28,982 nucleotides of DNA from Patescibacteria group bacterium (GCA_038065455.1 JBBTQX010000010.1:1-28982), one strand, 5' to 3'. Positions 1,857 to 27,551 are shown, counted from the first letter of the stretch. The notes: generated from the sequence alone by a model not told the origin. Translations and numbers: made by a program.

Positions 1857-3245
1857 ATGAAGCGAATTTTCCTCGGATTGGCGATTATCACCGCCTTTTT
1901 TTGGCTGGCAAGCCCGGCTGTTGGCAAGGCCCAAACAGAATCCATAAGTACCAGCACCCAAACCGAATCTGCCAGCGCTCCCGTCTCCCAATCCCAATCG
2001 GAGAGAAGCGCGCTTGAACAGCAGCTCGCCGACTTGGAAAAAGAAATTGAGACTAACCAGCAAAAAATCGACGAATACCAGAAACAGGGCAAAACCCTGA
2101 CCGGCGAGATAGGTTCTTTAAACGCCAAAGTCAACAAAATCAATCTTCAAATCAAAGCGATCAATCTCCAGCTTTCCAATCTCGGCAGCCGGATAACCGA
2201 TACCCAAAAAAATATAAACCGAACCGAAAACCAAATAGATAATCATAAGAATGCCATCGGGAAATCTTTAAGAATCATCTACGAATCCGACCGGGAAACC
2301 TTGGTGGGAATATTGCTCGCCAACGACAACTTCTCGGATTTTTTCGGCAATCTTAACGATATCACGCTCGTTCAAACTAATTTAAGGTCATCATTGGAAG
2401 AAATAACCAACCTCCGCCAGAATCTTCTGCAACAGAAAGAAGAGCTTTCTTCGGAAAAAACCGACGCGGAAAATCTGAAAGCAATCCAGGAGGCCCAACA
2501 AAGGAATGCGAAGGCCGTCCAAAGCCAGAAAAATACCCTTCTAAAAGAAACTAAAGGCAAAGAGTCGGTGTACCAAAAAATCGTTGCGGAGAAAAAAGCG
2601 ACGGCGGCCGAAATTCGGACCCGCATCTTCGAACTTTTAGGCGGCGGCGAATTGACCTTCCAAAAGGCCTACGATTATGCCAAGCTCGCCGAAGGAGCAA
2701 CGGGCGTCCGATCCGCCTTGGTTCTCGCTATTCTGGATCGGGAATCTAAGTTGGGAAAAAATGTCGGCCGGTGTTCCTATAAAAAAGCAATGCATCCGAC
2801 GCGCGACATTCCCTATTTCACGACTCTGCTCGCGGCCCTCGGCATCGATTCGGATTCCCAATCAGCCTATGTATCCTGCGCTAACAGCCACGGTGCCTAC
2901 GGCGGCGCGATGGGGCCGGCTCAATTCATTCCTTCCACTTGGAAGCTTTATACCAATTCAGTTTCGAAAGTCACGGGCAACAATCCCGCGAACCCTTGGA
3001 ACAATTCCGACGCCTTCGCGGCCACCGCGCTCTACATGAAAGACTTGCTTGCCTCCCAAAGTTGTAAGGATTATGCCAATGCGAACAAGAATGTCGCGTC
3101 CTATCAAACACTTTCGGAAAGGTGCGCGGCGGCAAAATATTACTCCGGCGGCCGCTGGTATATCTACCGCTTCTGGTACGGCCAGCCGGTTGTAGATAAG
3201 GCCAACGATTTCCAGGAGGATATCGATACCCTGAACGGTAAATAA
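1857..3245 (+). CDS. Secreted PcsB/CwlO-like coiled-coil protein with C-terminal lytic transglycosylase (SLT/MltB-like) domain
   Basis: Signal peptide, long coiled coil, catalytic-type ILDRES and GAMGPAQFIPSTW motifs. Start placed at 1857 because the ATG at 1845 lies inside a TGcTATGAT extended -10. Confidence 0.85.
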   Translation: MKRIFLGLAIITAFFWLASPAVGKAQTESISTSTQTESASAPVSQSQSERSALEQQLADLEKEIETNQQKIDEYQKQGKTLTGEIGSLNAKVNKINLQIKAINLQLSNLGSRITDTQKNINRTENQIDNHKNAIGKSLRIIYESDRETLVGILLANDNFSDFFGNLNDITLVQTNLRSSLEEITNLRQNLLQQKEELSSEKTDAENLKAIQEAQQRNAKAVQSQKNTLLKETKGKESVYQKIVAEKKATAAEIRTRIFELLGGGELTFQKAYDYAKLAEGATGVRSALVLAILDRESKLGKNVGRCSYKKAMHPTRDIPYFTTLLAALGIDSDSQSAYVSCANSHGAYGGAMGPAQFIPSTWKLYTNSVSKVTGNNPANPWNNSDAFAATALYMKDLLASQSCKDYANANKNVASYQTLSERCAAAKYYSGGRWYIYRFWYGQPVVDKANDFQEDIDTLNGK

Positions 3246-3259
3246 TTTTATAATTTTTA

Positions 3260-3997
3260 TCAGGATTCCTTCTGAAAGGCTTTTACTACGGGTTCGAAAT
3301 CCCCCTCCAGAATTTTCTCTATGTTGTGCCACTTCTTGCCGATGCGGTGGTCGGTAATGCGATCGTCGGGAAAATTATACGTTCTGATTTTTTCCGAGCG
3401 GTCGCCCGAACCGATTTGATTGTTCCGAAGTTCCGATATCGAGCCCACGGATTGTTTTTGCGCCTCATCATAGAGTATCGAGCGAAGCATTTCTATCGCC
3501 TTCTCCCGATTCGCATGCTGGGAACGTTCCGCCCGGCACGATACGACGATACCCGTAGGCTTATGCAAAACCCGAACTGCGGTTTCCACCTTATTGACGT
3601 TCTGCCCGCCGGGGCCGCCTGCCCGAGAAAAGGTGAATTCCAAATCACCGTCTTTCATATCAACTGCTTTAGCCTCTACCACGGGCAATACCGCAACCGA
3701 AGCGGTTGAGGTGTGAATTCTGCCCTGTCGTTCCGTGTCCGGCACGCGCTGGACGCGATGCACGCCGGACTCGTGTTTCAGCGCGTCATAAACGCCCAAG
3801 CCGGAAACCTCGGCCACAAGAGTCTTATAACCCTTTGCGCCGGATTCCGATGCATCGAGGGTAGAAAAAACCCAACTCTTTTTCAAGGCATATTTTTGGT
3901 ACATCCGCGCGAGATCGCCGGCAAAGAGCGAGGCTTCGTCGCCCCCCGTTCCGGCCCGAATCTCTAAGATTATCTTATTTATATTCTGCGATCCCAT
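3260..3997 (-). CDS. prfA: Peptide chain release factor 1, N-terminally shortened (PCRF + RF-1 domains)
   Basis: [28 protein letters not shown] (PxT recognition loop), [10 protein letters not shown] (GGQ) and [11 protein letters not shown] motifs; only 245 aa. Confidence 0.88.
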
Positions 3998-5031: not shown

Positions 5032-6288
5032 TTATATCTCAAAATAACCCTGCAATAGATATTCTTTCGCGAACTTCTCCAGTTCTTCGAAGCTGAAGTA
5101 TTCCGAAAAGACGCGGTTCCAGAGCGCCTCCTCGTGATGATAGAGATACTTCACCATTTCCTTTTCTTTAACGAGGCTCATCACCGTATCCACCAGATTA
5201 AAGCTCACGAGCGTATCATTCCCCACCTCATCCTTAAAATAATCGCCGACCCAATCCAATCCCGCCCAAAAACTCAAATCCACGCTCTTGCCATCCAAGG
5301 CCTCGCCGAGTTTCAGCACATCGTGTCCCGCCTTCGTCCAATGAATCGCTTCGGGATTCACATGCGGTGCGAAAAGCCGCCAATCGTTTTCATCGTCCTT
5401 GGCCAAATAGCGCTGAATCACGAGCCAGAGGGTTTTCTCACCCTCCGGAAATCGGCGGTCAGGCACATCTCCCCGCAGAAGCGAAATAATATTTTCCGAG
5501 AATGTTTCCGGAAACTCCGCGTTTTTTTTGAAAAGTTCCGAATAGAAGGGTATTTCGTGGAGATAGTGAAAAATAAGGCTGATCATTCTTAAAAGTTCGC
5601 CCGAAATTCCCAAGGCAACCGGAATGACAAAGACTACGCCCATTTCTTTCAGGTGGCTGATATTATGCTTCTTTTTCACGACGAAGGCCGAGGCCGCCTT
5701 GCCCCATTTTTCGGAAAGTGCCTGAACCACAATCTCCCGCTCTTCGAAATCAGCCGACGTGAGGCTTTCATATTGCTTGAAAAAAATGCCGTTCAGCCAC
5801 TCGCTTCCTTCCACAAAACGGAGAGCGCTGTATATTTCAAAAAGGTCTTCCTTCTCCAACATTTCATCCACCGTTCCATAACCGAGATATTCCATCACTT
5901 TCTTCGGTGGCTCATTTTTCAGAAACTCGATTGCTTTCCCCCTTCGAAGAAAAAAGCCATGGTTTGTGCCCGCCACTTTCTTCATTATCTCCAGTATCCG
6001 CGTGCAATCGCCTTGGATGCAGAAAGACGGCCGGCCAAGCGCTTCAAATATAAGATGGTCATCGGCTTCAATTTTCGAGATGAGCGCGTCATAAACCTCC
6101 TTCGCTTGGGCATCTTTGGCCACGCCCAACTTCAAAAGCCGGTCGTTTATCAAAGACTCGTTCTCCGCCACAATCTTTTCCATTATGCCATCCTTGCCCG
6201 TCAGGACGGAAAGATGGCGCTCTATTTTGGCCAAAAATCCCTTGTCGGCCCGCAAAATCTTCGCGATCTTCTCGGAAGCGACTGTCAT
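5032..6288 (-). CDS. Hypothetical protein (418 aa) whose start overlaps the PfkB kinase stop
   Basis: Long ORF with a 4-bp ATGA overlap at the upstream stop; no family recognised. Confidence 0.8.
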   Translation of the reverse strand: MTVASEKIAKILRADKGFLAKIERHLSVLTGKDGIMEKIVAENESLINDRLLKLGVAKDAQAKEVYDALISKIEADDHLIFEALGRPSFCIQGDCTRILEIMKKVAGTNHGFFLRRGKAIEFLKNEPPKKVMEYLGYGTVDEMLEKEDLFEIYSALRFVEGSEWLNGIFFKQYESLTSADFEEREIVVQALSEKWGKAASAFVVKKKHNISHLKEMGVVFVIPVALGISGELLRMISLIFHYLHEIPFYSELFKKNAEFPETFSENIISLLRGDVPDRRFPEGEKTLWLVIQRYLAKDDENDWRLFAPHVNPEAIHWTKAGHDVLKLGEALDGKSVDLSFWAGLDWVGDYFKDEVGNDTLVSFNLVDTVMSLVKEKEMVKYLYHHEEALWNRVFSEYFSFEELEKFAKEYLLQGYFEI

Positions 6289-7391: not shown

Positions 7392-8102
7392 ATGAAACAA
7401 CCAATTTTTGCCGACAATCAAATCTATCATGTTTATAATAGGGGGGTTGAAAAACGTAATATATTTTTAGATGACCAAGATAGATTTAGATTTATTCACG
7501 ATCTTTTCGAATTTAACGACGAAACTCCGGCGGCAAATATATATTATAAGTTTAATAAACTCGTTGGATTTCAATCTTACGAGGTTAAACCTCGTAAGAT
7601 TGAAAGAGAACCCAGAAAAACACTCATAAACATTTTAGCTTTTTGTTTAATGCCAAATCATTTTCATTTACTTTTGCAACAGAGAAAAGAAAATGGAATT
7701 GTTAAATTTATGCAAAAGTTGGGCACTGGTTATACCATGAGCTTCAATCAAAAATATGAAAGAAGCGGTTCTCTATTTCAAGGAACTTATAAGGCGATTT
7801 TAGTTGAAAAAGACTCTCATTTTATTCATCTCCCCTATTATATTCATCTTAATTCTTTAGATATCAAATTTCCTGAATGGCGAGAAAGAGAAATTAAAAA
7901 TTATAAAGAAGCGATGGATTTTTTGGAAAATTACCACTGGTCAAGTTTTCCGGATTATATCGGCAAAAAGAATTTTCCTTCAGTAACCCAAAGAAAAATC
8001 CTTTTGGAATTTTTCGGCGGTCCTGAACAATACAAAAAAGATACCATTAAATGGCTCAAAGAAATGAATTTAGAGGGAATTAAAGATTTAATTTTAGAAT
8101 AA
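7392..8102 (+). mobile_element. REP-associated tyrosine (HUH, Y1/IS200-like) transposase, RAYT-like
   Basis: YHVYNRGVEKRNIF, CLMPNHFHLLL (HUH), RSGSLFQG, YIHLN (putative catalytic Tyr) and WSS motifs. Visibly AT-rich, antisense to its neighbours, and flanked by palindromes. Confidence 0.9.
7569..7605. repeat. REP-like palindrome, family 1, inside the transposase CDS
   Basis: TTTCAATCTTACGAGGTT-A-AACCTCGTAAGATTGAAA (18-bp perfect arms). Confidence 0.92.
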
Positions 8103-15182: not shown

Positions 15183-18100
15183 TTATTGTAGGAAGAAACT
15201 CGCGTCTTTCCCCATATCTCCCGACCAATAGCCGTCCGAGTAGCTGTCGCCCGCCGAGCCAAAAATGTAATTCGTGTTCGAAATCCCCGGCCCATTCATA
15301 GGCACGAGCCAATAATAAGAATTGGAATTGAGATATATCGGGCTTATAAAACTGAATTCCAAACTGCGGGCCGACGGATGGTCTTCCATCGGCCATTGGT
15401 AATTGACGTCGGTGGTCGTGGCAATCAGATTCCCCATTGAACCGTTGTTATCGGAATATATTCCGATGAAGGTATCGGTAACGCTGTAGGGGCCGGCGCC
15501 TTTACCGACAGTCATTCCGATTTTACCGGCATTCGAACCTATTTGAATAAATATCCTTTGACCCGCGCCGTTCGATGTGCCAACTATCTGGCTCGCGTCA
15601 TTCTGATGGGGAAAGGGATTATAATTAGTCGGAAAATTCCAATTTTTTGCGACTGGCTGGGAAATATTTCCGAAATCATCGACGGCCCGCACGCCGATTT
15701 TATAGCCATGCGGGAAATTGACCGGAACGCTTGCCGAGAGATTTCTTCCTGTCGACTGCCATCCGGCCGGAGAAAATTCGGTTGAACTCGAATAATTGAA
15801 TTCGTAGAAAATATTATTGTCGAGCGAATCAGGGTCGGTTGCCTTCGGCCAAGCCAAATTCAAAGCCGAATGAAGACTATCGAACTGGAGAGTAACATCC
15901 GCCGGAGCGAGCGGCGGCAAAGATGGCGGCGGAGCGGATTGAAAATGGTATTGGCGCTTGTCCGCCGCCGCCAGCCGGAAATTGGCATAACCGCCGATGG
16001 TCGAAGAATAATCATAGAAAGCCGCCGTAACGTAGGCACTCGGTCCGAAATCCGTTACTCCGCTCGGCACGGCAATCGGAACAATAAAATGAAAATCTTC
16101 CAAACCGGACATTCCCTGCGGATTCAAACCTCCGCCTAAAGACGAACAGTGGTCGCCTTCCGGGAGAAGTATGAATTTATTGGAAGTCACATAACCATCG
16201 CCGGAACAGCGCAGATAACTCAAAATCGCCAGATTTGAATTATCCGCCGGCGAAAATTTATTGTTTTCAATCAAATTAGCGTCTTTCGGAGCGGCGGAAT
16301 TCACATACAGAAGTACTAATTTCCAATTTCCGTATGAACCCGGAATGAACGGATAATTTCCGTAATAAGCGTCTACGACATTTCCTCCCCCGCTTCGGGA
16401 ATCGCGATAGAAATATAAATTCGAAAAGAAACTCGGGACGTCCGCCGAGAGATTCGCCGGCGGCGAACCCAAGCCGTCCCGGTCGAAAGCCCGCAAGAAA
16501 AAAGCATAATTCCGGCCGATTTCGTCTATGCTCCGCGAAAGACCGATAGCGGCGCTCGTCGTGGCAAAAATTTCCGAAGTGGAAGCATTTCTGATTTCAT
16601 AACGGACGGAAAGCGCGTCGCCCATGGAATCAAGCGCCTCGTTCCATTTGAAGACTAATTTCATCGTGGAGGAGGAATAAGTCAGGCTCGCGCCGGTCAA
16701 ATTCGGAGCCATTCTCGGTTCAGGCAAACTGCCGGAATTCTGGGGCTTGGGATTGGAACGGGTTTCAAAATCACCGGACTGGCTTCCACTACATGAATTT
16801 CCGGCAAATTCGCCCTCGCCGCTTCCGGCCGATATACAATTTCCTGTCGGTTTTGCCTTCCTTTCCAAGCTCTGACCCGCCTGGGAAATGGATGTATTCG
16901 TATAGGCCAAACCGCCCACGCCCGCTCCAATATTGTCAAAAAGATAAGCGGTGATGGCCACGCCTTCGCTCGCTCCCGAAACGTTCGGCAAGGACGCAGT
17001 TCTTAGAATATCCGCGGCAGTCCCGCTATAATTTACGGCATTATAATCATTCAACCCCACCAGTAAATATCCTTTTGCCGGAATCACCATTCTGTCTGCC
17101 GTATGTTCCGACTCGCCGAACAACGCCAGAGAATTGGTGGATGTCGAATCGCTCCGGAAATATTTGAGCGACCAGCCTGACAGATTGAGCGATTGATTCC
17201 CGTCGTTATACAATTCCACAAATTCTTTGCCGACATCCCCTCCGTCGCCCGTCGCGTGAAACAAGAGCTCGCTTACGAAAATTGTGTTGGAAAATGTCGA
17301 GGTGCCGACGGAATTGAGCGCGCTCGAAGTCGCGTTCGTATTCGTACTGGTGCTATTATTCCCGCCATTGCTCGAATTGGTGCTGGTAGCCGTACTCGTG
17401 GTATTGGTAGTTTGATTGTAATAGTAGTAATAAGTAACCGGAGGATAATAAACAATCGGGGGTAGTGTCGGCTGTTGAACGACAGGCGCTTGAACAGGCG
17501 GCGCTTGAACAGGCGGCAATTTCGGCATACTCGTCGCAGGTGGTGTCTTTAAAGACACCACCTCGGGAATAGTTTTTCTAGCCAAAGCCTTACTTTTCAA
17601 ATTGGCGGTTTTGCTGATGAGGCTGTCGATTCGTTCGTTTAGCGCGTCCATTTCGCTGTTTCCCTCGCTCGTTTCAATAATTTCTTCGTCCGCTTCAACG
17701 GTTCCTTCGTCCGCTTCAACGGTTCCTTCGTCCGCTTCAACGGTTCCTTCATCCGTTTCAATATCTCCTTTTTCCGGCGACAAAATACTTTTTTCTCCGA
17801 TATCCTCCGAATTAACTTCGTCCGACTGGGTGCTATTGTCAAAGATAGCACCCGAAATAGTGTCGGTTATATCGGAATTACCGGCATTGTCCGCAGATTG
17901 GAATATTCCCCTGATTGCCTCGCCGATGGAAGCAAGAAAAGATTTTTGATTTTGTTTTTTGAAATTCGGGTCATTCTTCGCCATCTCGGCTTCTTTGAAG
18001 AATAAATATACTATCCCGGCCCCGTATTGGACGGATTTGGTGGAAAGTCGGGACCAATATTGAGACATTATAGTTGGTCTATTCAAAAGTTCATCATTAT

Positions 18101-18941
18101 TAAAAGAAAAAACTCCATTAGCTCTGACTACTGGATAATCGCCGAATTCATTATCAATTTTTATTCCATAACTTTTACCGTCACTTTCAATTCTAAAATA
18201 ATCTGCTTGTGGTAAAAAATAACCACTATTGATAGTGTTTTTGCTATAAAAGTTATTATTGGAATACTTCGCCAATCCGTCAAAATACGAATTCAAATCG
18301 CTTAATTGAATCGGGGACTTCCCGTTCAATCTCCCCGGCAAACCGGAATCCTTATTATTCAGCTTGAATTTGTCCGTCCAATTCTCGTAGGGACTGTCGC
18401 CCGGATGAGGGTCGTTCCGCGTATGGTCCGGCACGCTCGCATCCTCTATCAAATGGAGGATATGCCCTAGCGCGAAAAAGGCTTTTTCTTTTTCCCCGTT
18501 TACGTAATATTCCAATGCCTTGTGCCAAGTGAAATTCGTTTCGGATGATATTCCGCTTATTTTTCCGGTTTGAGCGGCGGATAAAATAGAAGCGATAGTC
18601 GCGGGAACTTTATACTTCACGCTATTCTGATTCGTCTGATTATTCGCCCAATCCTTCGATTTTTCCCAACTTCCGAGAAGCGAGTCGTGAAAACCGACAT
18701 TGTTTACCGGGTCATAGAAGTGATTCATCGGCCGGATATTGTCGTCCTCTTTCCGTGACCCGTCTATCATATAATTTCGGAAACCTTCGGGTATTTGATT
18801 GCCGAGAAAATTCTTATTATAAAAATTCACAATCTCATCCGTCAGATAGGCGTGCGTGCCGATATTGTAGGCAAAAGACTCTCTTGGGAAAGAGATAAAT
18901 AAAAAAGATAAAACAAGCGAAAATAAGATAAGTCTTTCCAT
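15183..18941 (-). CDS. Large secreted protein: Zn-dependent phospholipase C/P1-nuclease-like domain, low-complexity linker, lamin-tail domain (LTD) and Fn3-like repeats
   Basis: Signal peptide then YNIGTH, HFYDP and LGHILHLIEDASVPDH...YE; IFVSELLF...EFVELYN...LSGWSL (LTD); W..A.D...Y...RA.D..G Fn3-like segments. Confidence 0.78.
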   Translation of the reverse strand: MERLILFSLVLSFLFISFPRESFAYNIGTHAYLTDEIVNFYNKNFLGNQIPEGFRNYMIDGSRKEDDNIRPMNHFYDPVNNVGFHDSLLGSWEKSKDWANNQTNQNSVKYKVPATIASILSAAQTGKISGISSETNFTWHKALEYYVNGEKEKAFFALGHILHLIEDASVPDHTRNDPHPGDSPYENWTDKFKLNNKDSGLPGRLNGKSPIQLSDLNSYFDGLAKYSNNNFYSKNTINSGYFLPQADYFRIESDGKSYGIKIDNEFGDYPVVRANGVFSFNNDELLNRPTIMSQYWSRLSTKSVQYGAGIVYLFFKEAEMAKNDPNFKKQNQKSFLASIGEAIRGIFQSADNAGNSDITDTISGAIFDNSTQSDEVNSEDIGEKSILSPEKGDIETDEGTVEADEGTVEADEGTVEADEEIIETSEGNSEMDALNERIDSLISKTANLKSKALARKTIPEVVSLKTPPATSMPKLPPVQAPPVQAPVVQQPTLPPIVYYPPVTYYYYYNQTTNTTSTATSTNSSNGGNNSTSTNTNATSSALNSVGTSTFSNTIFVSELLFHATGDGGDVGKEFVELYNDGNQSLNLSGWSLKYFRSDSTSTNSLALFGESEHTADRMVIPAKGYLLVGLNDYNAVNYSGTAADILRTASLPNVSGASEGVAITAYLFDNIGAGVGGLAYTNTSISQAGQSLERKAKPTGNCISAGSGEGEFAGNSCSGSQSGDFETRSNPKPQNSGSLPEPRMAPNLTGASLTYSSSTMKLVFKWNEALDSMGDALSVRYEIRNASTSEIFATTSAAIGLSRSIDEIGRNYAFFLRAFDRDGLGSPPANLSADVPSFFSNLYFYRDSRSGGGNVVDAYYGNYPFIPGSYGNWKLVLLYVNSAAPKDANLIENNKFSPADNSNLAILSYLRCSGDGYVTSNKFILLPEGDHCSSLGGGLNPQGMSGLEDFHFIVPIAVPSGVTDFGPSAYVTAAFYDYSSTIGGYANFRLAAADKRQYHFQSAPPPSLPPLAPADVTLQFDSLHSALNLAWPKATDPDSLDNNIFYEFNYSSSTEFSPAGWQSTGRNLSASVPVNFPHGYKIGVRAVDDFGNISQPVAKNWNFPTNYNPFPHQNDASQIVGTSNGAGQRIFIQIGSNAGKIGMTVGKGAGPYSVTDTFIGIYSDNNGSMGNLIATTTDVNYQWPMEDHPSARSLEFSFISPIYLNSNSYYWLVPMNGPGISNTNYIFGSAGDSYSDGYWSGDMGKDASFFLQ
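17538..17563. repeat. Palindrome family 2, in CDS
   Basis: AGGTGGTGTCTTT|AAAGACACCACCT, perfect 26 bp. Confidence 0.9.
17684..17762. repeat. 21-bp tandem repeat encoding GTVEADE
   Basis: CTTCGTCCGCTTCAACGGTTC three times exactly (17684-17746) plus a degenerate unit. Confidence 0.9.
17828..17853. repeat. Palindrome family 2 (degenerate), in CDS
   Basis: GGGTGCTAT-TGTCAAAG-ATAGCACCC. Confidence 0.8.
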
Positions 18942-19943: not shown

Positions 19944-20294
19944 TCAATCCTCTATCAATTTTTTTACTATATTCAGTATGTTTTTCCTTGTTTCTGGATT
20001 TTCCACATCCCGCGAGCGATTGCCGAGATTCGGTTTCAAATTAACCATTGAATCAAATTCAATCCATTCGTTCTCCGGCTTATTCGGATAAATATTGATA
20101 CCCCAAGTGTCTTTCCGCTGGGAGCTTTCTTCTTCCGAAAGCAGGACTTCTTCATCCGTGTGAAGCTCTCCGCCGACTGCCATAATCTCCTGATTAACAT
20201 CGACTACTGCTTTAACCAAATCGCCGAATTCCGCATTAGCCATTAAAATCACCTCGGATTTCTTTATCGGTTTTTTTACTATTTTAATTTCCAT
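19944..20294 (-). CDS. DUF5674-like protein
   Basis: LVKAVVDV...GGELHTDEE.LL...WGINIYP...IEFDSMVNLKP. Start refined to MEIKIV because TGgTATTAT lies 6 nt upstream. Confidence 0.72.
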   Translation of the reverse strand: MEIKIVKKPIKKSEVILMANAEFGDLVKAVVDVNQEIMAVGGELHTDEEVLLSEEESSQRKDTWGINIYPNKPENEWIEFDSMVNLKPNLGNRSRDVENPETRKNILNIVKKLIED

Positions 20295-20311
20295 TTTTCT
20301 ATAATACCACA

Positions 20312-21262
20312 TTACTGGCTTTGGGAATTTTGGGGCGTGGGCGAGGAAGCGAGAATGAAATTCGCGCCTGTCCAGCCCGTTCGCGCGAGGCTCTGCCCCT
20401 TCGGAATGTCGTCCCAGTATATTTCCTCCATCTTGTTCCCATCGGAATCATAAAGCGCGACCGCATTTTTCTTATATGCCAGGGTGTTCGACGAAGTCCA
20501 GGCGATATCGAGCGCGGCGCTCCCCGCGTAGCCCGAGGCATTGCCGAGAAGCAAATACCGGCCCGGCTGGATGACTTTTCCCGAAAATAGCTTAGCGGAG
20601 ACGAGCGAGCCTTCGCTCCCGGAAGAAGTTTTCTTTTTCAGAGTCCAGCCGGTCAAATCCACCGCATTTCCGCCGGCATTATACAATTCCACGAATTCGT
20701 AGTTGGCGCCGGAATCCGCGCCCGCCATTATTTCGCTCACTAATATCCGCCCGGTTTTTGAAACTGTGGTTGCGGATTGGATTTGAGGCTGGGTGCTATC
20801 TTTGAAGATAGCACCCGAATTGGAGGTGTTTGACGGAGAAATTTGAGATTGCGAAGACTGGGAAGACGTGTCGGGGTCGAGAATCGAGATGATTTCCGAA
20901 ATGCGCGTTTCGAGCAGACTTAGTTTATTGTTCAAAACTTTCAAATCTTCGCTCGAGGTTTTTGAAACAATGTTCGCGGTATACACCTTCACGCCTACGG
21001 GTGTGCTTGTGATATTTTTCTTCGGCTGGGTGGTGTCTTTAAAGACACCACCCGAATTCTCGTTCCCAAACTGGGAGGTATACTTAACTACACCACCCGG
21101 TTCTCCGGACTGATCTAAAGGGATTTTATTCAGGGGGATTTCGCCGACATACACTCCGGCGGAGGGAGAAAAAGCGCGAGTCGCGAGAGAGGTTAGGTTT
21201 TTCGGCCCGACCGCGAAAACAAATATCGCCAGAACGGTAAGAGTGATAAATAAAGCCTTCAC
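20312..21262 (-). CDS. Secreted or anchored lamin-tail-domain protein
   Basis: GTG start, hydrophobic N-terminus, and ILVSEIM...EFVELYN...VDLTGWTL...GQSLAR...PTP LTD motifs. Confidence 0.82.
   Translation of the reverse strand: MKALFITLTVLAIFVFAVGPKNLTSLATRAFSPSAGVYVGEIPLNKIPLDQSGEPGGVVKYTSQFGNENSGGVFKDTTQPKKNITSTPVGVKVYTANIVSKTSSEDLKVLNNKLSLLETRISEIISILDPDTSSQSSQSQISPSNTSNSGAIFKDSTQPQIQSATTVSKTGRILVSEIMAGADSGANYEFVELYNAGGNAVDLTGWTLKKKTSSGSEGSLVSAKLFSGKVIQPGRYLLLGNASGYAGSAALDIAWTSSNTLAYKKNAVALYDSDGNKMEEIYWDDIPKGQSLARTGWTGANFILASSPTPQNSQSQ
20791..20816. repeat. Palindrome family 2, in CDS
   Basis: GGGTGCTATCTT-TG-AAGATAGCACCC. Confidence 0.88.
21028..21053. repeat. Palindrome family 2, in CDS
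   Basis: GGGTGGTGTCTTT|AAAGACACCACCC, perfect 26 bp. Confidence 0.9.
21073..21098. repeat. Palindrome family 2 (degenerate), in CDS
   Basis: GGGAGGTATACTTAACTACACCACCC, 3 substitutions from the 27563-27588 copy. Confidence 0.75.
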
Positions 21263-21278
21263 GAAAATATTATAACAC

Positions 21279-21614
21279 TTACCTGCCCATGATTTTAGAT
21301 ATTTTCGATTTCAAATCCGGAAGATCTTTTCCGATTATTTCCCAAACCAATTCCGTATCGACGTCGAAATACTCGTGAGTGAGAAAATCTCTCGTACCGG
21401 CTATCTTTTTCCACGGAACATCAAGATGTTTTTCCTTAAAATCAACCGGCAGATTTTTGACGGCTTCGCCGATAATTTCCAATCTCCTAAGGACGGCGTC
21501 TTGGATTTTTAACGATGACTCGAATTGTTCCTTCGATATACCGGAAGCATATTCTTCTATTCGGACGATACTTTCCAGAATATGTTCAAGTAATACTTCC
21601 GGCTTCTTGGTCAT
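21279..21614 (-). CDS. HEPN/DUF86 (HepT-like) ribonuclease toxin
   Basis: DAVLRRLEIIGEAVK and PWKKIAGTRDFLTHEY (RX4HXY motif). Confidence 0.9.
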   Translation of the reverse strand: MTKKPEVLLEHILESIVRIEEYASGISKEQFESSLKIQDAVLRRLEIIGEAVKNLPVDFKEKHLDVPWKKIAGTRDFLTHEYFDVDTELVWEIIGKDLPDLKSKISKIMGR

Positions 21615-21892
21615 AATACCGAAACTAGGTCTTTTTGGATAAAGGGCCTTATTCTCGGAGATAGGGAACCCGGGGTCGCTAAATCCACCTTAATCCCCAG
21701 AATTTCCTCCAATTGCAATTTTAATGCGACCAAATCAAGCAAACTTTTGCCTTTGGGCAGTTCCACCAGCAAATCTATGTCGCTTGCCGGACCCGACTCT
21801 CCCCTTGCAACCGAACCGAAAATGGAGGCTCGGATGACTCCGGCGGCCCTCAAGGTCGGTAAAATTTTCAATTTTATGGAATCAATTTTCAT
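21611..21892 (-). CDS. Minimal nucleotidyltransferase (MntA-like antitoxin)
   Basis: FGSVARGESGPASDIDLLVE (GSX10DXD) and KVDL; 4-bp overlap with the HEPN gene. Confidence 0.9.
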   Translation of the reverse strand: MKIDSIKLKILPTLRAAGVIRASIFGSVARGESGPASDIDLLVELPKGKSLLDLVALKLQLEEILGIKVDLATPGSLSPRIRPFIQKDLVSVL

Positions 21893-21900
21893 ACGGAAAT

Positions 21901-21958
21901 ATTATACCATAAAAACGACAATCGCCAGAGCGGCGACGGAAAGAAATATGCCTTTCAC
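21901..21958 (-). repeat. Signal-peptide-like fragment, copy 1 (MKGIFLSVAALAIVVFMV*), ending in the MNT promoter
   Basis: Near-identical to 22840-22898 and similar to the first codons of the LTD gene at 21262. Confidence 0.8.
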
Positions 21959-21966
21959 GGTTTTAA

Positions 21967-22578
21967 TTATACCACGCTGAAACGGATGAGTTCTTTTTTT
22001 ATAACGGCGTCGGATACTTCGAATCCTTTCATATAAACTATATTCTCGGTGTAGTCGATGTCTTTAAAATAGGCCAGTTGGACGCGGAATATTTTTTCAT
22101 TGAATTCGTTGCCGAAGATTTTTTTCGCTTTCCACGCAATCGGCGAAATGTCGCCGTATTTCTTGGCGATATAATACAAATCGACATAATCCTTCCATTT
22201 GGCGCGGCGCCCCAACGCGTATGCTTTCATTGCTGCCAATGTCAAAAGATCGGGTATTCTTACTGTGTCATCAAACAATTTTTTGAATTCAATCGGATAT
22301 GGGTAATGAAAAAAGGTTATCTTGACGCTCCGCGCAATGAAGGTGAATTCCCCGGTTCTTTGCACGAGGATTTTTTCGATCTTCTCACGACGCGCGATGC
22401 GCGATTTCAAGATTAAAGTATTAAATAACGAATGTGAGAATAAATCAAAATCTATCGATCTTCTATGGCCGAGGTGAAGCGCTATAGCCGTTCCACCCAC
22501 CAAACCGAATTGTTTCGAAAACCTCCTAATCGTAGATAAGAGCATTTCCTGCTCCAAGGTTAAAATTTCTTTATGCAT
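21967..22578 (-). CDS. AbiEii/AbiGii-family nucleotidyltransferase toxin
   Basis: LVGGTAIALHLGHRRSIDFDLF and LAAMKAYALGRRAKWKDYVDLY motifs. Start refined to MHKEIL. Confidence 0.88.
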   Translation of the reverse strand: MHKEILTLEQEMLLSTIRRFSKQFGLVGGTAIALHLGHRRSIDFDLFSHSLFNTLILKSRIARREKIEKILVQRTGEFTFIARSVKITFFHYPYPIEFKKLFDDTVRIPDLLTLAAMKAYALGRRAKWKDYVDLYYIAKKYGDISPIAWKAKKIFGNEFNEKIFRVQLAYFKDIDYTENIVYMKGFEVSDAVIKKELIRFSVV

Positions 22579-22831
22579 GCGCGTGAAAATAATGCTTGAA
22601 ATAGTGCACAATTTCCGGGTAATAGTTCACTCTCTTTCTGCGGGGATGGGTTTGTTTTCTGAAAATCCGAGTTGTTTTCTTGATACCCAAGATGGAAATT
22701 AGTTTTTTCACATCGTCAAAATCGCCGTAATTCAGGACACTTTCCACTACCGCCTCTTCGGAAAGCTTATCGAGATCGCGGACATACCAAAATAGATATG
22801 GGCGCTTTTTAACAAATTCATCTATTTTCAT
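22571..22831 (-). CDS. Small partner or antitoxin of the AbiEii-type toxin (DUF6922-like)
   Basis: LFWYV....LSEEAVVESVLNYGDFDD; overlaps the toxin start. Confidence 0.72.
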   Translation of the reverse strand: MKIDEFVKKRPYLFWYVRDLDKLSEEAVVESVLNYGDFDDVKKLISILGIKKTTRIFRKQTHPRRKRVNYYPEIVHYFKHYFHAHA

Positions 22832-22839
22832 ATAAGACT

Positions 22840-22898
22840 ATTATACCACAAAAAACGACAATCGCCAGAGCGGCGACGAAAAGAAATATACCCTTCAT
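22840..22898 (-). repeat. Signal-peptide-like fragment, copy 2 (MKGIFLFVAALAIVVF...), ending in the AbiE-module promoter
   Basis: Shares AAAAACGACAATCGCCAGAGCGGCGACG and flanks with 21901-21958. Confidence 0.8.
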
Positions 22899-22907
22899 CG
22901 GAGTAGC

Positions 22908-23024
22908 TTATGAAAGATTATTCAATATTTTACCAATCTTCAATTTTAAATCTGGAAAGTCTTTTTGAGTAATTTCCCAAACTGTGTCCAAATCAATAGA
23001 AAAGTATTCATGAATAACATAATC
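22908..23024 (-). pseudogene. 3' remnant of a second HEPN/DUF86 toxin
   Basis: Translates to DYVIHEYFSIDLDTVWEITQKDFPDLKLKIGKILNNLS*, which aligns with DFLTHEYFDVDTELVWEIIGKDLPDLKSKISKIMGR of 21279-21614. There is no 5' part. Confidence 0.85.
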
Positions 23025-23028
23025 GCTA

Positions 23029-23049
23029 TTCGGAAGTCCGACTTCCGAA
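23029..23049. repeat. REP-like palindrome, family 1 variant
   Basis: TTCGGAAGTC-C-GACTTCCGAA. Confidence 0.85.
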
Positions 23050-23055
23050 GAAATA

Positions 23056-23322
23056 TTATTTGTAAATATCGTGCGTTCCGGCCTCTAAAAATAAAACGGT
23101 TCCTTCTCTAAGAAAGATAAATTTAATCCTGTAAGACTTTGCAATAGAAAAGGCCCACACTTCTCTTTCTTTACCGTGAAGTTTATGGGTATCAAGACGC
23201 GAATCAAACGGATCCTTTCTAAAAATCTTTTCTTTTTCCTTGGCGGCTTCCTTGACGCGGGTAGGCAGTTTTTTGTAGTGGCGCTCGAATCTCGAACTCG
23301 TTCGAACTTCGCGGATGACCAT
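23056..23322 (-). CDS. RelE/YafQ-like type II toxin
   Basis: FERHYKKLP...PFDSRLDTHKLHG...AFSI...YRIKF...GTHDIY. Confidence 0.87.
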   Translation of the reverse strand: MVIREVRTSSRFERHYKKLPTRVKEAAKEKEKIFRKDPFDSRLDTHKLHGKEREVWAFSIAKSYRIKFIFLREGTVLFLEAGTHDIYK

Positions 23323-23325
23323 ACA

Positions 23326-23544
23326 TCAATCCAAATTAGCTAAAGAACGAATCTTTATGGTTTTGCCTGATTTATATTCTTTTATTCCCTCCTCCGCAAG
23401 TTTATCTAACTTCTCCGCCTCTTTGCCAGTTAGATAATACGTGGGCGCTGATTTGGCGATAAGTTTCTCATACTCTCTCACGGGAAGAATGACTATGCCT
23501 GATTGCTTTTCTATTTTTGCCTTCTGAATAGTAATAGTATTCAT
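23326..23544 (-). CDS. Putative antitoxin
   Basis: 72 aa, 3 bp upstream of the toxin; VILPVREYEKL and EGIKEYKSGKT motifs. Confidence 0.75.
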   Translation of the reverse strand: MNTITIQKAKIEKQSGIVILPVREYEKLIAKSAPTYYLTGKEAEKLDKLAEEGIKEYKSGKTIKIRSLANLD

Positions 23545-23875
23545 ATTGATACTATATCACACTCAAAAATCCCTACAAGGCCGAGTCTTCGGGCTATAGG
23601 CAGAAGTTAAAAAAGCACCGCTCCTATCTTTAGGAGCGATGAATTAAAAAGTTTTTTGAAGAGAAATACGACCGCTACAGTTAACTGTAGCACCGATGAG
23701 GTTGGAGGCTTACAAAGAGCGCAACTGTACTGTTTTTTCTTATATCTTTTTCTCATACTGCATCTTTAATTTGCGCTTAAATTCATCAAGGGTTAAAAAA
23801 TTATCCCGATTTTTATTCTTAATTTCCGGAAAAACTTCTTCGACTTTTCAGGATAAGAAATTTGTCCTTTAAAAG

Positions 23876-24160
23876 CTATTTGAATTTCTTATAAATTTTG
23901 TCGTGGTGGTCAAAGTCGATGAAACGCAATTCGCCCTGATGAAATTCGTATACTAAAACAAAAGAACCGATGTGTAGGCGCCGACGATTTCTCAAGGTAT
24001 AGCGAAGAGGCTTGCCGATGCTGGGCTCGCGGAGAATCTTATTTATCTGATCTTGAATTCTTTCGAATAAGGCTGCGTTCTTTTTATACCGGCGAAGCGC
24101 GTTCTCAAATTCATGTGAATATACAATTTTAAAGATATCGCGATGTAGCCTATCTGCCAT
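23876..24160 (-). CDS. RelE/ParE-like type II toxin
   Basis: KILREPSIGKPLRYTL...RRLHIGSFVLVYE....FIDFDHHDKIY. Confidence 0.85.
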   Translation of the reverse strand: MADRLHRDIFKIVYSHEFENALRRYKKNAALFERIQDQINKILREPSIGKPLRYTLRNRRRLHIGSFVLVYEFHQGELRFIDFDHHDKIYKKFK

Positions 24161-24161
24161 A

Positions 24162-24392
24162 TCAAATGGCTCTCAACCACCTCTTCATCTCTTTCGGAGA
24201 ATTAAAAGAGCGGCCATTTCCTTTATCTAGCTCGCGACTAATTCTCTCCCACCTCTTTAATATCGCCGGCCGGATCAATACTTCATCAGATTGGAGAAGG
24301 CCCTTTTTAATGAATAATATTTCTTTTTCAAGCAATAGCTGGCGTTGGACAATATTTTGATACTCTCTTTTCGGTATAGTAATGGTATTCAT
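24162..24392 (-). CDS. Putative antitoxin
   Basis: 76 aa, 1 bp upstream of the toxin; TITIPKREY and G.GRSFNS.KE motifs. Confidence 0.75.
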   Translation of the reverse strand: MNTITIPKREYQNIVQRQLLLEKEILFIKKGLLQSDEVLIRPAILKRWERISRELDKGNGRSFNSPKEMKRWLRAI

Positions 24393-24502
24393 ATTTGCTA
24401 TAATATCACACCCAAAAATCAGAAGTCAAAACCCCGAAAATGTTTTTATGGCCTTTTACCAAATTAATAAGCCATGGCTGGATAACTTGGTAAAATAGTT
24501 AG

Positions 24503-24525
24503 CTTATGAAGTCGGACTTCGTAAG
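24503..24525. repeat. REP-like palindrome, family 1 variant
   Basis: CTTATGAAGTC-G-GACTTCGTAAG. Its reverse complement CTTACGAAGTCCGACTTCATAAG matches the 8117-8139 copy at 18 of 23 positions. Confidence 0.85.
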
Positions 24526-24527
24526 AT

Positions 24528-26012
24528 TCAATGACACAGATTGTACAATGTTACTGTAGCCAAACAAGTACCGATAGTACAAGTGCTACCACTAAACCAG
24601 CCAGTCGGATAACCAGAATCTGGAGGTCTTGCTTCTACAATGTTGAGGATAAATTTTATAAATTTTGATAAATAAAAATCATTTTTAACTAATTTTAGGG
24701 GTGTATCTATCCTTGCTATTGCACATAGGTTTGAAGCGGTAGATATATCACCACAAGTATCAAAAGTTGAACTAAAACTATAATTAATACATAAGTTATC
24801 TGGAGGTTGTTGTTGTGAAGATATTTGCGCATATACTGTAGGGCCGGTAGCGGAAGTGGTTTTCCAGCCGCCTTCTATGCTACCGTTGCTACAGTTATAA
24901 TCAAAACTCCCATCGCCGCGGTTGGTATAGTAATAATTCGTCTGGCCGGGATAAGCTAGTTCAGCATTGGTCGTGGCAGGATCGGCATCGTAGCAGTCCG
25001 TACTTGTCGTCACGGGAACCTGATAGTGGGACCCTGTCCCCTGCCCATTCACAGCATTCATACGAACATAACCAGTCCAAGAAGCTGTACTAGACGTATA
25101 AATTTGAGTTCCAGAAGCATAGCCATCACCATCACCATCCCGGAAAAATGGATAAGCCTGAAGTATTTTTGCATCACCAGTAATAGAATTAGTTGGAGTG
25201 CCTAATTTACCAGTTCCTATAGTTATTTTAGTCCCAGGAGCAAAAGCAATGGTAGCTGGGCCAGTAAAAGACACTGTAAAACCATTAATAGTCGAATTCC
25301 CATCAAAAGCTTCTACTCCGGTGCCAACAGAACAATTACCAGTAAGAGCGCCGGCGCTATTATAGTTACAAACTGGGTCGGACCAAGCCAAAGTCATAGA
25401 ATCCAAGCGACCCTTGGAATCTTCTACCACAAACCTAGTGTGGTAAGTTCTAGTATGAGTATCCTCCACCACCCACTCTCCCCTATAACGGTATTGAACC
25501 ACACCATCCACAGCTTGAATTTTTTCTATCAAATTACCAACTAAGTTTTTATTTTCTACAACTAAATCGTTAATAACTAAAAATCCATTTTTATCTACAG
25601 AATAAGCCGATGGTTTTTCTTCTAATGTAGAAACTGGAGCCGAAGACTCCATTTTTAATTCCACCATCTTTACTGTGTTATCCGTCTCTATCTCCGCCCA
25701 AACTCGCTTTAATTCTACATCACTATTTATTGCCACCAACATCTTCTGGGTGTCTCCCACCTTAACATCTAGGGGATCAATAAAACCGGTAACAAATTTT
25801 GGAAATTTATCGGCACCGCTGACGGAGAAGGAATATTCTCCTTTGGGGATAGACCACTCCTGACCTTGAGCATTTATATAAGATACCAAGCCCAAATCAG
25901 CCACAGGAGAACTGACCGTGGAACGATATTTTATAAACGTCCAAATTCCACCCAAGCCAACTATAACTACCAAGAATCCAACTAAAACCAGGTTTTTATT
26001 ATTTTTATTCAT
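24528..26012 (-). CDS. Membrane-anchored Cys-rich surface protein with MopE-like putative metal-binding motif
   Basis: N-terminal TM; RDGDGDGYASG and DCYD....YPG....DYNC motifs. Confidence 0.7.
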   Translation of the reverse strand: MNKNNKNLVLVGFLVVIVGLGGIWTFIKYRSTVSSPVADLGLVSYINAQGQEWSIPKGEYSFSVSGADKFPKFVTGFIDPLDVKVGDTQKMLVAINSDVELKRVWAEIETDNTVKMVELKMESSAPVSTLEEKPSAYSVDKNGFLVINDLVVENKNLVGNLIEKIQAVDGVVQYRYRGEWVVEDTHTRTYHTRFVVEDSKGRLDSMTLAWSDPVCNYNSAGALTGNCSVGTGVEAFDGNSTINGFTVSFTGPATIAFAPGTKITIGTGKLGTPTNSITGDAKILQAYPFFRDGDGDGYASGTQIYTSSTASWTGYVRMNAVNGQGTGSHYQVPVTTSTDCYDADPATTNAELAYPGQTNYYYTNRGDGSFDYNCSNGSIEGGWKTTSATGPTVYAQISSQQQPPDNLCINYSFSSTFDTCGDISTASNLCAIARIDTPLKLVKNDFYLSKFIKFILNIVEARPPDSGYPTGWFSGSTCTIGTCLATVTLYNLCH

Positions 26013-26141: not shown

Positions 26142-27551
26142 ATGAAAAACTCAATCATAATGTTGATAGTAGTGGTAAGTGTGGGTTTTGCCGGTTATCC
26201 TCAATTAGTTTTTCAGAAACAGACGACCCTTGGCGGGAGTAATGATATAGCCAAGGGATTTGGAATAAATAGTTCAAATTTTCTTATTTGGGGGTGGCAA
26301 GATATAAATGTTCCGAACAAGCTTCGCACCTCAGTCAAAAGTTTGGACACAGATTTTTTAGAAAAATGGTTAGTACTAGACTCTGAAGCAACCCAGGGCT
26401 TATCTGGAGCGTTTCCATTAAATAATAAGTCAACTGTTCTTTATAGCAAAGACTTATATTCTTCCAAGGGTCGCTTACTGTTTTTGGACTCCAATGGAAA
26501 ATTGCTGAAAAAAATTGAATATAATCAAGGGTTAGCGCTGGGTAAGGTGGACGGTCTAGCTTTCTGTATTTCCGATAAGGCCGAGGCCTATAACGAAAAT
26601 GGAGAGTTGGTTTTCTCTTGGCCGATGGACTACAACGGCTCAACCAATGTTTCCATTCGCTCGTTAGGGGAATTTATTTGGATATCCTCTTTTGGCGCCA
26701 AAGTTTTTGTGGAAAAACGCAAAAAACTTACCGGTGAATTAATTTGGAAATACGAAACCGAAGGAGTGAAGTCATTTGGAGATTTAGATGAAGATGGTAA
26801 TTTTTATATGGGATTTTCCAAATACCAAATGGATTCTCTTTGGATTCTCCAATACCAGGTGGTAAAGGTAAACTCGGAGGGGTTAGAGATTTGGCGAAAG
26901 GCCTGGCACGCTAGAAACACGCCACTAGGCAAAACTCAAACATTCTGCCAAGGACTAACTCTGAATAAAGAGAAGAACCTAGTTGTCTTAGCTGGGCAAA
27001 TTCAAAAAGGGGAAAACCGAATGAATGGAGAAAGGTCCGCCTACATAGCTGGACTCGCCATGAGTACTGGAGAAATTCAATGGGATAAAACCTGGGATTA
27101 CTCTGGGACTTGGGTTTCCAGCGCAGACGGAGTCTTGTTCTGGGGAAATGATCTCTTTGTGCTATCTCATAGCTACTCTAGTTCCACTGGAGCAATTCCA
27201 AATGTAATTTACTTGGAAAAGTACAAGGTGGATAAAGTTCTCTCGGTTGGAGATCCTAAACCAACACTCCCCTCCGAATTCCGTTTGGAGCAGAACTATC
27301 CGAATCCGTTCAATCCTAGGACGATGATCCGGTTTGAGATGCCGAAACAAAGCTTAGTAAGACTGGCGGTTTACGATATTCTTGGCCGGGAGGTGAAACT
27401 TCTGGTTCAGGAAATCAAATCAGCCGGCGTTTACGAAACCGATTTCGATGCCTCGGAATTGCCGAGCGGAACATACTTCTATCGCCTCCAAGTCTATGGA
27501 AGTTCAACTTCCATATTTACGGAGACGAAGAAGATGATTCTGATGAAGTAG
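26142..27551 (+). CDS. Secreted probable beta-propeller protein with T9SS type A sorting-like C-terminal domain
   Basis: Signal peptide, repeated G...W motifs, and C-terminal FRLEQNYPNPFNPRT.I.F...VRLAVYDILGREV..LV...SGTYFYRL...TKKMILMK. Confidence 0.85.
   Translation: MKNSIIMLIVVVSVGFAGYPQLVFQKQTTLGGSNDIAKGFGINSSNFLIWGWQDINVPNKLRTSVKSLDTDFLEKWLVLDSEATQGLSGAFPLNNKSTVLYSKDLYSSKGRLLFLDSNGKLLKKIEYNQGLALGKVDGLAFCISDKAEAYNENGELVFSWPMDYNGSTNVSIRSLGEFIWISSFGAKVFVEKRKKLTGELIWKYETEGVKSFGDLDEDGNFYMGFSKYQMDSLWILQYQVVKVNSEGLEIWRKAWHARNTPLGKTQTFCQGLTLNKEKNLVVLAGQIQKGENRMNGERSAYIAGLAMSTGEIQWDKTWDYSGTWVSSADGVLFWGNDLFVLSHSYSSSTGAIPNVIYLEKYKVDKVLSVGDPKPTLPSEFRLEQNYPNPFNPRTMIRFEMPKQSLVRLAVYDILGREVKLLVQEIKSAGVYETDFDASELPSGTYFYRLQVYGSSTSIFTETKKMILMK
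27495..27515. repeat. REP-like palindrome, family 1 variant, in frame in the CTD
   Basis: TATGGAAGTT-C-AACTTCCATA, encoding YGSSTSI. Confidence 0.8.

Follow-up and report, generated by a model that had tools for sequence, protein, structure and literature searches.

We examined a 28,982-nt stretch of a Patescibacteria genome (GCA_038065455.1, JBBTQX010000010.1; hereafter the window), in which toxin–antitoxin (TA) operons are stacked directly upstream of a gene for an LTD-domain surface protein and are separated by short fragments resembling the first codons of that gene. The genome, of 654 kb, is labelled G000, and the relatives and loci compared with it carry working labels such as G004, L055 and L075. 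Genes from 19.6 to 26 kb are all on the minus strand. In its 5' to 3' direction a 494-aa gene and a palindrome are followed by a ParE pair (24392-23876), a YafQ-like pair (23544-23056), a 21-nt palindrome, a HepT remnant (23054-22908), a fragment termed stub A (22898-22851), an AbiE pair (22831-21967), a second fragment termed stub B (21958-21911), an MNT-HepT pair (21892-21279) and finally the LTD gene (21262-20312). Gene identities were taken from a Pfam profile search of the open reading frames (ORFs) of the window, with E-values judged against the curated cut-offs. Adjacent small antitoxin and toxin genes with matching domains were found for the HepT-MNT, AbiEii and ParE operons, which are accordingly predicted to be type II/IV TA systems.

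The LTD gene (20312..21262, minus strand, as are all features of this paragraph) is intact, encodes 316 aa (Pfam LTD, 8.1e-20) and starts MKALFITLTVLAIFVF; a TGTTATAAT box (21269..21277) lies 6 nt before its GTG. Immediately upstream are the HepT (HEPN) toxin (21279..21614, 111 aa; Pfam HepT-like, 6.3e-31) and its MNT antitoxin (21611..21892, 93 aa; Pfam NTP_transf_2, 3e-15), the ATG of the latter being preceded at 8 nt by a TGGTATAAT box (21901..21909). Stub B follows (21911..21958, corresponding to the first 16 LTD codons, with its ORF continuing to 21902), and 7 nt before its GTG the last codons of the AbiEii gene and the stop together form another TGGTATAAT box (21966..21974). The AbiEii nucleotidyltransferase toxin (21967..22611, 214 aa; Pfam AbiEii, 2.1e-12) is paired with a DUF6922-like antitoxin (22571..22831, 86 aa), whose Pfam DUF6922 match of 0.0028 is below the cut-off; homologs of this antitoxin in L075 and L162 do match DUF6922. 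A TGGTATAAT extended -10 box (22840..22848) lies 8 nt before the AbiEi-like ATG, next to stub A (22851..22898, again the first 16 LTD codons, with the ORF continuing to 22818). Upstream of stub A only the C-terminal third of a second HepT (HEPN) toxin remains (22908..23054), matching Pfam HepT-like at 9.3e-08 over profile positions 88-119 of 120.

The two stubs belong to one 47-nt repeat family (22851-22897 versus 21911-21957, 94% identical), the third member of which, 21215-21261, is the true LTD start and is 66% identical to stub B. A second repeat family prolongs the first two copies by 35 nt at 80% identity (22820-22854 and 21881-21915), running through the promoter into the next gene as far as its fourth codon. 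Stub A translates as MKGIFLFVAALAIVVFCGIIVLYENR followed by a stop (26 aa) and stub B, from its GTG, as (M)KGIFLSVAALAIVVFMV followed by a stop (18 aa); both are identical or near-identical to MKGIFLSVAALAIVVF for 16 codons and then read through into promoter DNA. After codon 16 the likeness to LTD ends in both stubs and TGGTATAAT follows, 8 nt before the ATG of the next antitoxin. An earlier note, made from the sequence of the window alone, had described the spacers in these terms, as LTD-like starts that break after about 16 codons into the promoter of the next TA module, with the copy on the AbiEii side keeping its own TGGTATAAT, 7 nt and GTG in overlap with the AbiEii stop, and this description was borne out in each respect. 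Among 13,182 candidate starts in the genome, the LTD start ranked first against each stub (32/48, with a mean over candidates of 14.6 and an sd of 3.2), albeit with a modest margin over the next-best candidates (28 and 27), and a 100-nt query around stub B had no other match in the genome. Genome-wide, an ORF of 50 codons or more begins 5-10 nt after 49/149 TGNTANAAT boxes, compared with 7.6% of random positions, in keeping with a reading of the boxes as putative promoters of leaderless transcripts; the organism may commonly make leaderless mRNAs. Upstream of stub A, the window shows no promoter.

The origin of the stubs was indicated by G004, a different species of the same genus, whose LTD ortholog is 75-76% identical in protein and 75.6% identical in DNA. 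Its contig carries a DUF6922-like antitoxin, AbiEii, TGGTATAAT, 7 nt, an LTD ortholog beginning MKGIFLSVAILAIFVFAVGPKN and then a DUF5674 gene, as in the window; there is no MNT-HepT, and the LTD start, MKGIFLSVAILAIFVF, comes directly after AbiEii. The earlier note had asked whether the LTD genes of relatives begin MKGIFL, and in G004 this was the case. The G004 start is 83% identical to stub B plus promoter over 69 nt, and over its first 48 nt a hand count on alignment A1 gave agreement at 39/48 positions with stub B and 41/48 with stub A. In the same alignment the G004 start tracks stub B as far as CTGGCGAT and thereafter tracks the present LTD start of the window; stub B agrees with the G004 LTD start in its 5' half and shares its 3' half with stub A. 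Since AbiEii in G004 directly precedes a complete LTD gene beginning MKGIFLSVAILAIFVF, the stubs are, judged from these comparisons, old LTD starts, and stub B is in all appearance the remainder of an AbiEii-end/LTD-start junction that is still complete in G004. The starts of more distant orthologs read MKGLLFIIALGVVIILF in G003 and M(M)SGRFLFVIALAAVIVLF in G001, from which it follows that the stubs have kept what aligns as an ortholog-like start, MKGIFL, and that the present MKALF start of the window is the unusual one. Judged from G004, this MKALF start is the part that arrived with the MNT-HepT pair.

Further evidence came from L055, a metagenome contig whose LTD protein is 95% identical to that of the window. 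There an insertion sequence (IS) carrying an rve transposase is followed by a YafQ-like pair and a palindrome, and these by a promoter with a long LTD remnant, MNT-HepT, TGTTATAGT with a 16-codon stub, AbiE, and TGGTATAAT with LTD. The arrangement of an AbiEii end, TGGTATAAT and a start, seen at stub B, precedes the intact LTD gene both here and in G004. The junction of HepT and stub in L055 is of the same type as that of HepT and LTD in the window, with a TGTTATAGT box, and the L055 equivalent of stub A comes after an intact HepT. The tail of that HepT is ~64% identical to the HepT remnant of the window (33/50 and 31/50). The LTD remnant of L055 reads (M)KGIFLSV and then ATRAFSPSEVYIGEVPLNN; 20 codons are missing from its interior, and it extends to about codon 47.

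Identity between these loci was strongly mosaic. Compared with L055, the window was identical at 300/300 positions across stub A and AbiEi and at 150/150 in the C-terminal half of AbiEii, falling to about 80% thereafter; MNT-HepT was uniformly 80.8% identical over 709 columns; and within LTD the first windows gave 32/50, 39/50 and 47/50, followed by 400/400. The divergent tract extends from the MNT promoter through HepT and the TGTTATAAT box to about 120 nt into LTD, so that its right end lies inside LTD, beyond the stub. These identity profiles indicate that a replacement LTD 5' end, comprising the first ~120 nt of the present gene, travels with MNT-HepT, and the replacement proposed in the earlier note was in this way recovered. 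Compared with G004, 600/600 nt were identical from 22801 to 22202 (about codon 10 of AbiEi to the middle of AbiEii), with 74-86% identity from 22202 to stub B and 22/50 and 33/50 farther left. Perfect identity over 600 nt between species whose LTD genes are 75.6% identical points to a very recent exchange among co-occurring Patescibacteria, and perfect-identity tracts that end inside coding sequence are the expected product of homologous exchange between co-occurring relatives. Stubs A and B also have ATTGTCGTTTTT in common where the intact genes have ATATTTGTTTTC. These shared derived bases argue for one stub having been copied by homologous recombination rather than for two independent hits, and descent of both stubs from a single copied stub is the more likely history on this basis.

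Module order and content also varied among strains and species. MNT-HepT is followed by AbiE in L055, AbiE (after the HepT remnant) is followed by MNT-HepT in the window, and AbiE stands alone in G004. Logan contigs (contigs, not reads) of four further runs were compared over 20200-24600. A joint at 21234>21931 (X8, depth 224) represents the G004-type form without MNT-HepT. A second, 21910>22851, was present in X8 (depth 50.8) and X9 (depth 17.4), from two studies, and lacks AbiE and one stub; its 632-nt contig shows 0 differences over 206 nt of the window MNT and extends 73 nt on the side of stub A and the HepT remnant, and the joint falls inside 28 nt exactly common to stubs A and B, the intervening DNA at the joint being uncertain in the contig mapping. 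X8 also has the window-type junction of stub A and AbiEi, from which the AbiE-less and window-type forms appear to co-occur in that run. Contigs of X11 and X14 cover the stretch only in part and nothing was drawn from their gaps; two other joints, 22107>22180 and 22200>22432, were taken as unreliable, their sides being <30 nt. From these contigs and the L055 order, array content and order are polymorphic, with breakpoints in the repeats, which is the gain and loss of modules across strains that the earlier note had anticipated. Mosaic tracts with variable end points and recombinant forms joined in the repeats, as found here, are together what homologous recombination is expected to leave.

We therefore regard as the probable explanation that the stubs are displaced LTD 5' ends and that modules were gained together with an LTD 5' segment and later shuffled by homologous recombination between stubs. 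The TA operons would sit directly upstream of LTD, each with its own extended -10 promoter 6-8 nt before the start codon, a spacing that implies leaderless transcripts. A module would enter along with the promoter and first codons of a relative's LTD allele; a crossover in the homologous LTD 5' region would fuse the new start to the resident gene body, and the old start would be displaced upstream, where it would remain as a stub. Once at least two stubs were present, RecA-type homologous recombination between them could delete, duplicate or permute modules, and a module with one stub could enter any relative with a homologous gene start. The outcome would be an integrase-free, cassette-like array in which the duplicated gene start would serve as a portable arm. 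We infer that RecA mediates the recombination and that natural transformation brings in the DNA; the genome has both recA and comEC. The interpretation put forward in the earlier note holds in the main and is recast here as displaced starts in a recombining, polymorphic TA array, whereas repeated insertion at one site about 50 bp into the surface gene does not fit the L055 remnant reaching to codon ~47, the crossovers at various positions in and beyond the stub, or the shared derived bases.

The note's remark that no integrase was in view was confirmed for the window: apart from an IS200-like Y1 gene 13 kb from the array, the Pfam search found no integrase or recombinase among the window ORFs. 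A single PF00589 gene (309 aa, contig C4) is present in the genome, and we take it to be a housekeeping Xer-type enzyme. The 6 GIY-YIG matches of the genome are all on contigs other than that of the window. Each insert consists of two TA genes only, with no island-encoded integrase, and the Pfam search found no transposase in the modules. Junctions of nine loci, read by eye and with no formal search run, showed no shared termini or inverted repeats.

The occurrence of such bracketing repeats beyond the window was surveyed around AbiEii genes. A scan of Patescibacteria genome contigs gave 80 loci (48-63% identical apart from G004), of which 6 were dropped for flanks that were too short, and at each of the remaining 74 the flank upstream of the antitoxin was aligned with the flank downstream of AbiEii. 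At 11/74 loci (~15%) the score was above the highest of 888 cross-locus controls (0/888 controls), and same-genome decoy windows gave 1/65 and 2/67, so that the bracket pattern is general in the sense of recurring across the phylum; L143 and L145 come from one contig and the surveyed genomes are not independent. The repeats were direct, 22-40 nt long and different in sequence at each locus. At L075 and L104 the repeated segment is the beginning of a gene and its promoter, at L091 a promoter as far as the ATG, at L106 the 3'-terminal 12 codons of the gene upstream, and at L111, L132, L136 and L150 a terminator-like hairpin or a -35 region. Three copies were present at L075, where a stub, RelB/YafQ, a second stub and AbiE precede an intact membrane-protein gene, and at L111, where repeats alternate with AbiE and MNT/HepT. 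In relatives of the L075 genome the membrane-protein gene is single-copy, with no TA operon directly upstream in 4/5 loci examined; the L075 stubs too carry the ortholog-like bases and the resident copy is the odd one, independently of the window. An empty-site search for L106 returned one distant match.

Comparison of G000 with itself returned 23 pairs of direct repeats, 28-150 nt long and 400-3000 nt apart. At C5:27198-27961 (L161, 700-1900) a perfect 41-nt repeat brackets a second MNT-HepT pair, in which an in-frame stop interrupts HepT. Upstream, the repeat forms a 21-codon stub with a promoter, MNKFG-FTTPQIVIFILAL-VVV followed by a stop, and downstream it forms the beginning of a 209-aa secreted protein, MFKDNKA-FTTPQIVIFILAL-AVVVGG..., 6 nt after the HepT stop and with no promoter of its own; no ortholog of this protein was found in 40 relatives at E<=1e-8 when an empty site was sought. 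At C8:60438-62584 (L162) a 36-nt direct repeat (92%) brackets an rve transposase together with a DUF6922/AbiEii pair. In a separate case, C4:60409-61069 (L163), the repeat is of 42 nt (90%) and the bracketed DNA is one PaaX-like gene that has a Cas2-like domain.

A number of observations weigh against modules having been gained with an LTD 5' segment and shuffled between stubs. The LTD orthologs of G001, G002 and G003 (50-57% protein identity) have no TA modules upstream, and the stub core RCCNNTCTGGCGATNNTNGTTTTY was found only in G000 among 401 genomes of the order searched (400 negative; G004 was outside the sample). An order-wide DNA search with MNT-HepT and the LTD start returned no donor with MNT-HepT beside LTD, the nearest MNT-HepT relatives in DNA, at 72% (G279) and 69% (G269), lying in other contexts and not adjoining an LTD gene. 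Homologous recombination alone does not account for the initial duplication at each locus, and the AbiE-less form may be ancestral rather than derived. Bracket repeats were absent from 63/74 AbiE loci. Where present, brackets are narrow in length (22-40 nt among the surveyed AbiE loci and 36-48 nt within G000) and, in the clearest cases, hug the operons (0-32 nt before the antitoxin start and 0-10 nt after the toxin stop), which looks more like enzymatic target duplication; the perfect 41-nt repeat on C5 is likewise what a fresh target duplication would give. Metagenome assemblies are the source of all the sequences, and the linkage across the 600-nt tract shared by co-occurring species depends on the assembler.

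These last features of the brackets are the substance of a rival account, in which a dedicated mechanism acting in trans would insert minimal, promoter-to-stop TA cassettes at staggered cuts ~30-50 nt apart, duplicating the target, here the LTD start, with repeated hits building the array. CRISPR repeat duplication and the long target duplications of IS1634/IS1549-type elements are known analogies. The account would accommodate the locus-specific repeats around AbiE operons and their rarity among controls and decoys, the tight cassette limits, the perfect bracket on C5 and the one around IS and AbiE on C8, the three-copy arrays of L075, L111 and the window, and the several repeats that end at a T run. 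It is nevertheless rather unlikely in our judgement. No candidate enzyme lies in or beside the cassettes, the junctions as read by eye have no conserved cassette termini or inverted repeats, and just 1/14 brackets is perfect; the copies in the window, C5 and L075 instead differ like alleles, with homology running past the identical core. Moreover, the MNT-HepT cassette brings a promoter and ~120 nt of diverged LTD, which target duplication does not predict. A site-specific system of integron-like or island-like kind, with its recombinase elsewhere in the genome and the stub as attachment site, would share with sedentary chromosomal integrons the array-specific repeats and promoter-bearing TA cassettes, and its 5'-end replacement would recall islands that target gene 5' ends. 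With the lone PF00589 gene lying on C4 and none in the window, with repeats that are locus-specific and with crossover points that vary, we consider such a system highly improbable.

The earlier note had itself offered the alternative that the stubs are expressed hydrophobic micropeptides of 18 and 26 aa, retained as membrane-active peptides or as leader peptides regulating the downstream TA operon. Stub B does have a consensus extended -10 box 7 nt before its GTG, the C5 stub has a promoter and an intact 21-codon ORF, and the L075 stubs are likewise short ORFs. No support for functional micropeptides was found, however, and the reading is improbable: the tails past codon 16 are promoter read-through and differ between stubs, giving ORFs of 18, 26 and 30 aa; stub A is promoterless in the window; the L055 remnant has lost 20 internal codons; the AbiE-less form shows that a stub can be lost; and equivalent repeats elsewhere are promoters, terminators or gene 3' ends, often non-coding. 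The slightest chance of all was given to the repeated junctions being assembly artefacts that mix co-occurring strains. The coverage of the window contig (about 7) and the 600-nt AbiE tract identical to a more abundant co-occurring species would both be compatible with such mixing, but each junction has unique flanks and the shared core of 28 nt is shorter than the 31-mers used by Logan. All sampled 31-mers of 20900-23400 occur in five runs, though these may be the source sample, the junction at stub A is found again in L055 and among the X8 contigs, and the same architecture is present in unrelated assemblies.

Displacement of LTD starts followed by recombination between stubs, which we continue to favour for the window, can be compared with several known systems. 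Sedentary chromosomal integrons, such as the Vibrio superintegron, are similar in their tandem small cassettes, many of them TA modules with their own promoters, in their array-uniform repeats and in their strain-variable content. However, the window array has no IntI integrase adjoining it or elsewhere in the window. Its repeat is the coding start of the downstream gene, homologous to LTD orthologs, and stands before each cassette, where an attC-type imperfect palindromic site would be expected after it; repeats of the window type are also locus-specific across genomes and have variable crossover points. Islands that target dusA bring a replacement 5' end that leaves the gene intact, the old and new 5' segments forming direct repeats at the junctions, and in the window a duplicated 5' segment was likewise found at both junctions with LTD intact at 316 aa. 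Such islands are large and encode their own tyrosine integrase, whereas the window inserts are TA operons of 0.7-0.95 kb without a recombinase, and their arms differ like alleles. In orphan toxin-immunity arrays of CDI and Rhs systems, displaced fragments of the main gene beside stacked modules provide homology for module swaps, as proposed here, but there the fragment is internal or 3' and the module is fused to the main protein; in the window the modules are independent upstream operons and only a promoter and signal-peptide codons are exchanged. Lastly, deletion and duplication between direct repeats, together with homology-facilitated illegitimate recombination in naturally transformable bacteria, give the same gain and loss of heterologous DNA and the same mosaic tracts. 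The latter process combines one homologous anchor with a short-homology join. We know of no description of these processes building ordered TA arrays with regular 22-48-nt gene-start duplications, and among the titles and beginnings of abstracts returned by a full-text literature search, none described TA modules separated by stubs of a neighbouring gene.

TA and defence modules accumulate in hot spots, and their arrival without an integrase is rarely visible. Here, legible scars, together with relatives that show empty, single and reordered states, yield a concrete model, open to test, of how ultra-small uncultivated bacteria gain and lose cassettes. Insertion into the 5' end of a gene would be tolerable in this model as the incoming DNA supplies a new promoter and signal-peptide start. 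A broader generalisation, which we put forward tentatively as a possibility with the balance of probability against it, is that integrase-free stacking of TA operons, perhaps along with other small accessory operons, is general in Patescibacteria. A 22-48-nt copy of the target, often the promoter and first codons of a secreted-protein gene, would bracket each cassette and would be either a portable attachment site or the product of a long-stagger insertion enzyme; arrays would grow at one site as CRISPR and integron arrays do, the target gene always being rebuilt.

The promoters and starts of the two TA pairs at the left of the array are 84% identical over 51 nt. Pair 1 consists of an antitoxin-like gene (24162..24392, minus strand, 76 aa), an ORF without a Pfam match whose partner is the ParE gene, and a ParE/RelE-type toxin (23876..24160, minus strand, 94 aa; Pfam ParE_toxin, 9.9e-09). 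A 175-nt deletion in the ParE gene (23982>24158, with AA in its place) was present in contigs of three runs (X8, X9 and X11), and from these the toxin appears to be knocked out in other strains. Pair 2 consists of an antitoxin-like ORF without a Pfam match (23326..23544, minus strand, 72 aa) and a YafQ/RelE-like toxin (23056..23322, minus strand, 88 aa), the Pfam YafQ_toxin match of which (0.0043) is below the cut-off; its L055 counterpart, at 6e-05, is likewise below the 30-bit cut-off. In L055 the left edge of the array is occupied by the IS with the rve-type transposase (2797-3706), where the window has the ParE pair. L055 also has an internal deletion in AbiEii (5484-5487 versus window 22293-22543) that removes the N-terminal nucleotidyltransferase half and leaves the antitoxin intact.

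At the junction of TA pair 2 and the HepT remnant lies the perfect 21-nt palindrome (23029..23049). Its 13-nt core, GAAGTYNRACTTC, which extends to about CTTACGAAGTCSGACTTCGTAAG, has 6 sites in the genome and 0 in a reversed control: 23029-23049, 24508-24520 and 27499-27511 in the window, and C3:4575, C8:59600 and C8:65116 elsewhere in G000. Four of these adjoin TA genes (2 in the window and 2 on C8). Palindromes like it also flank the arrays of L055 and G004, and it could be a terminator or a REP-like element. The IS200-like Y1 transposase domain (1.5e-09) belongs to a 236-aa protein (7392-8102, plus strand), which is long for the family. A second, far larger LTD-domain surface protein of 1252 aa is encoded 1.4 kb downstream of the LTD gene (15183-18941, minus strand) and has a Thr/Ser/Asn-rich and Pro-rich linker. 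A 469-aa protein (26142-27551, plus strand) carries a Por_Secre_tail domain (5.7e-09), the C-terminal sorting domain of type IX secretion; to our knowledge the Patescibacteria lineage has no type IX secretion system, and the domain was unexpected there.

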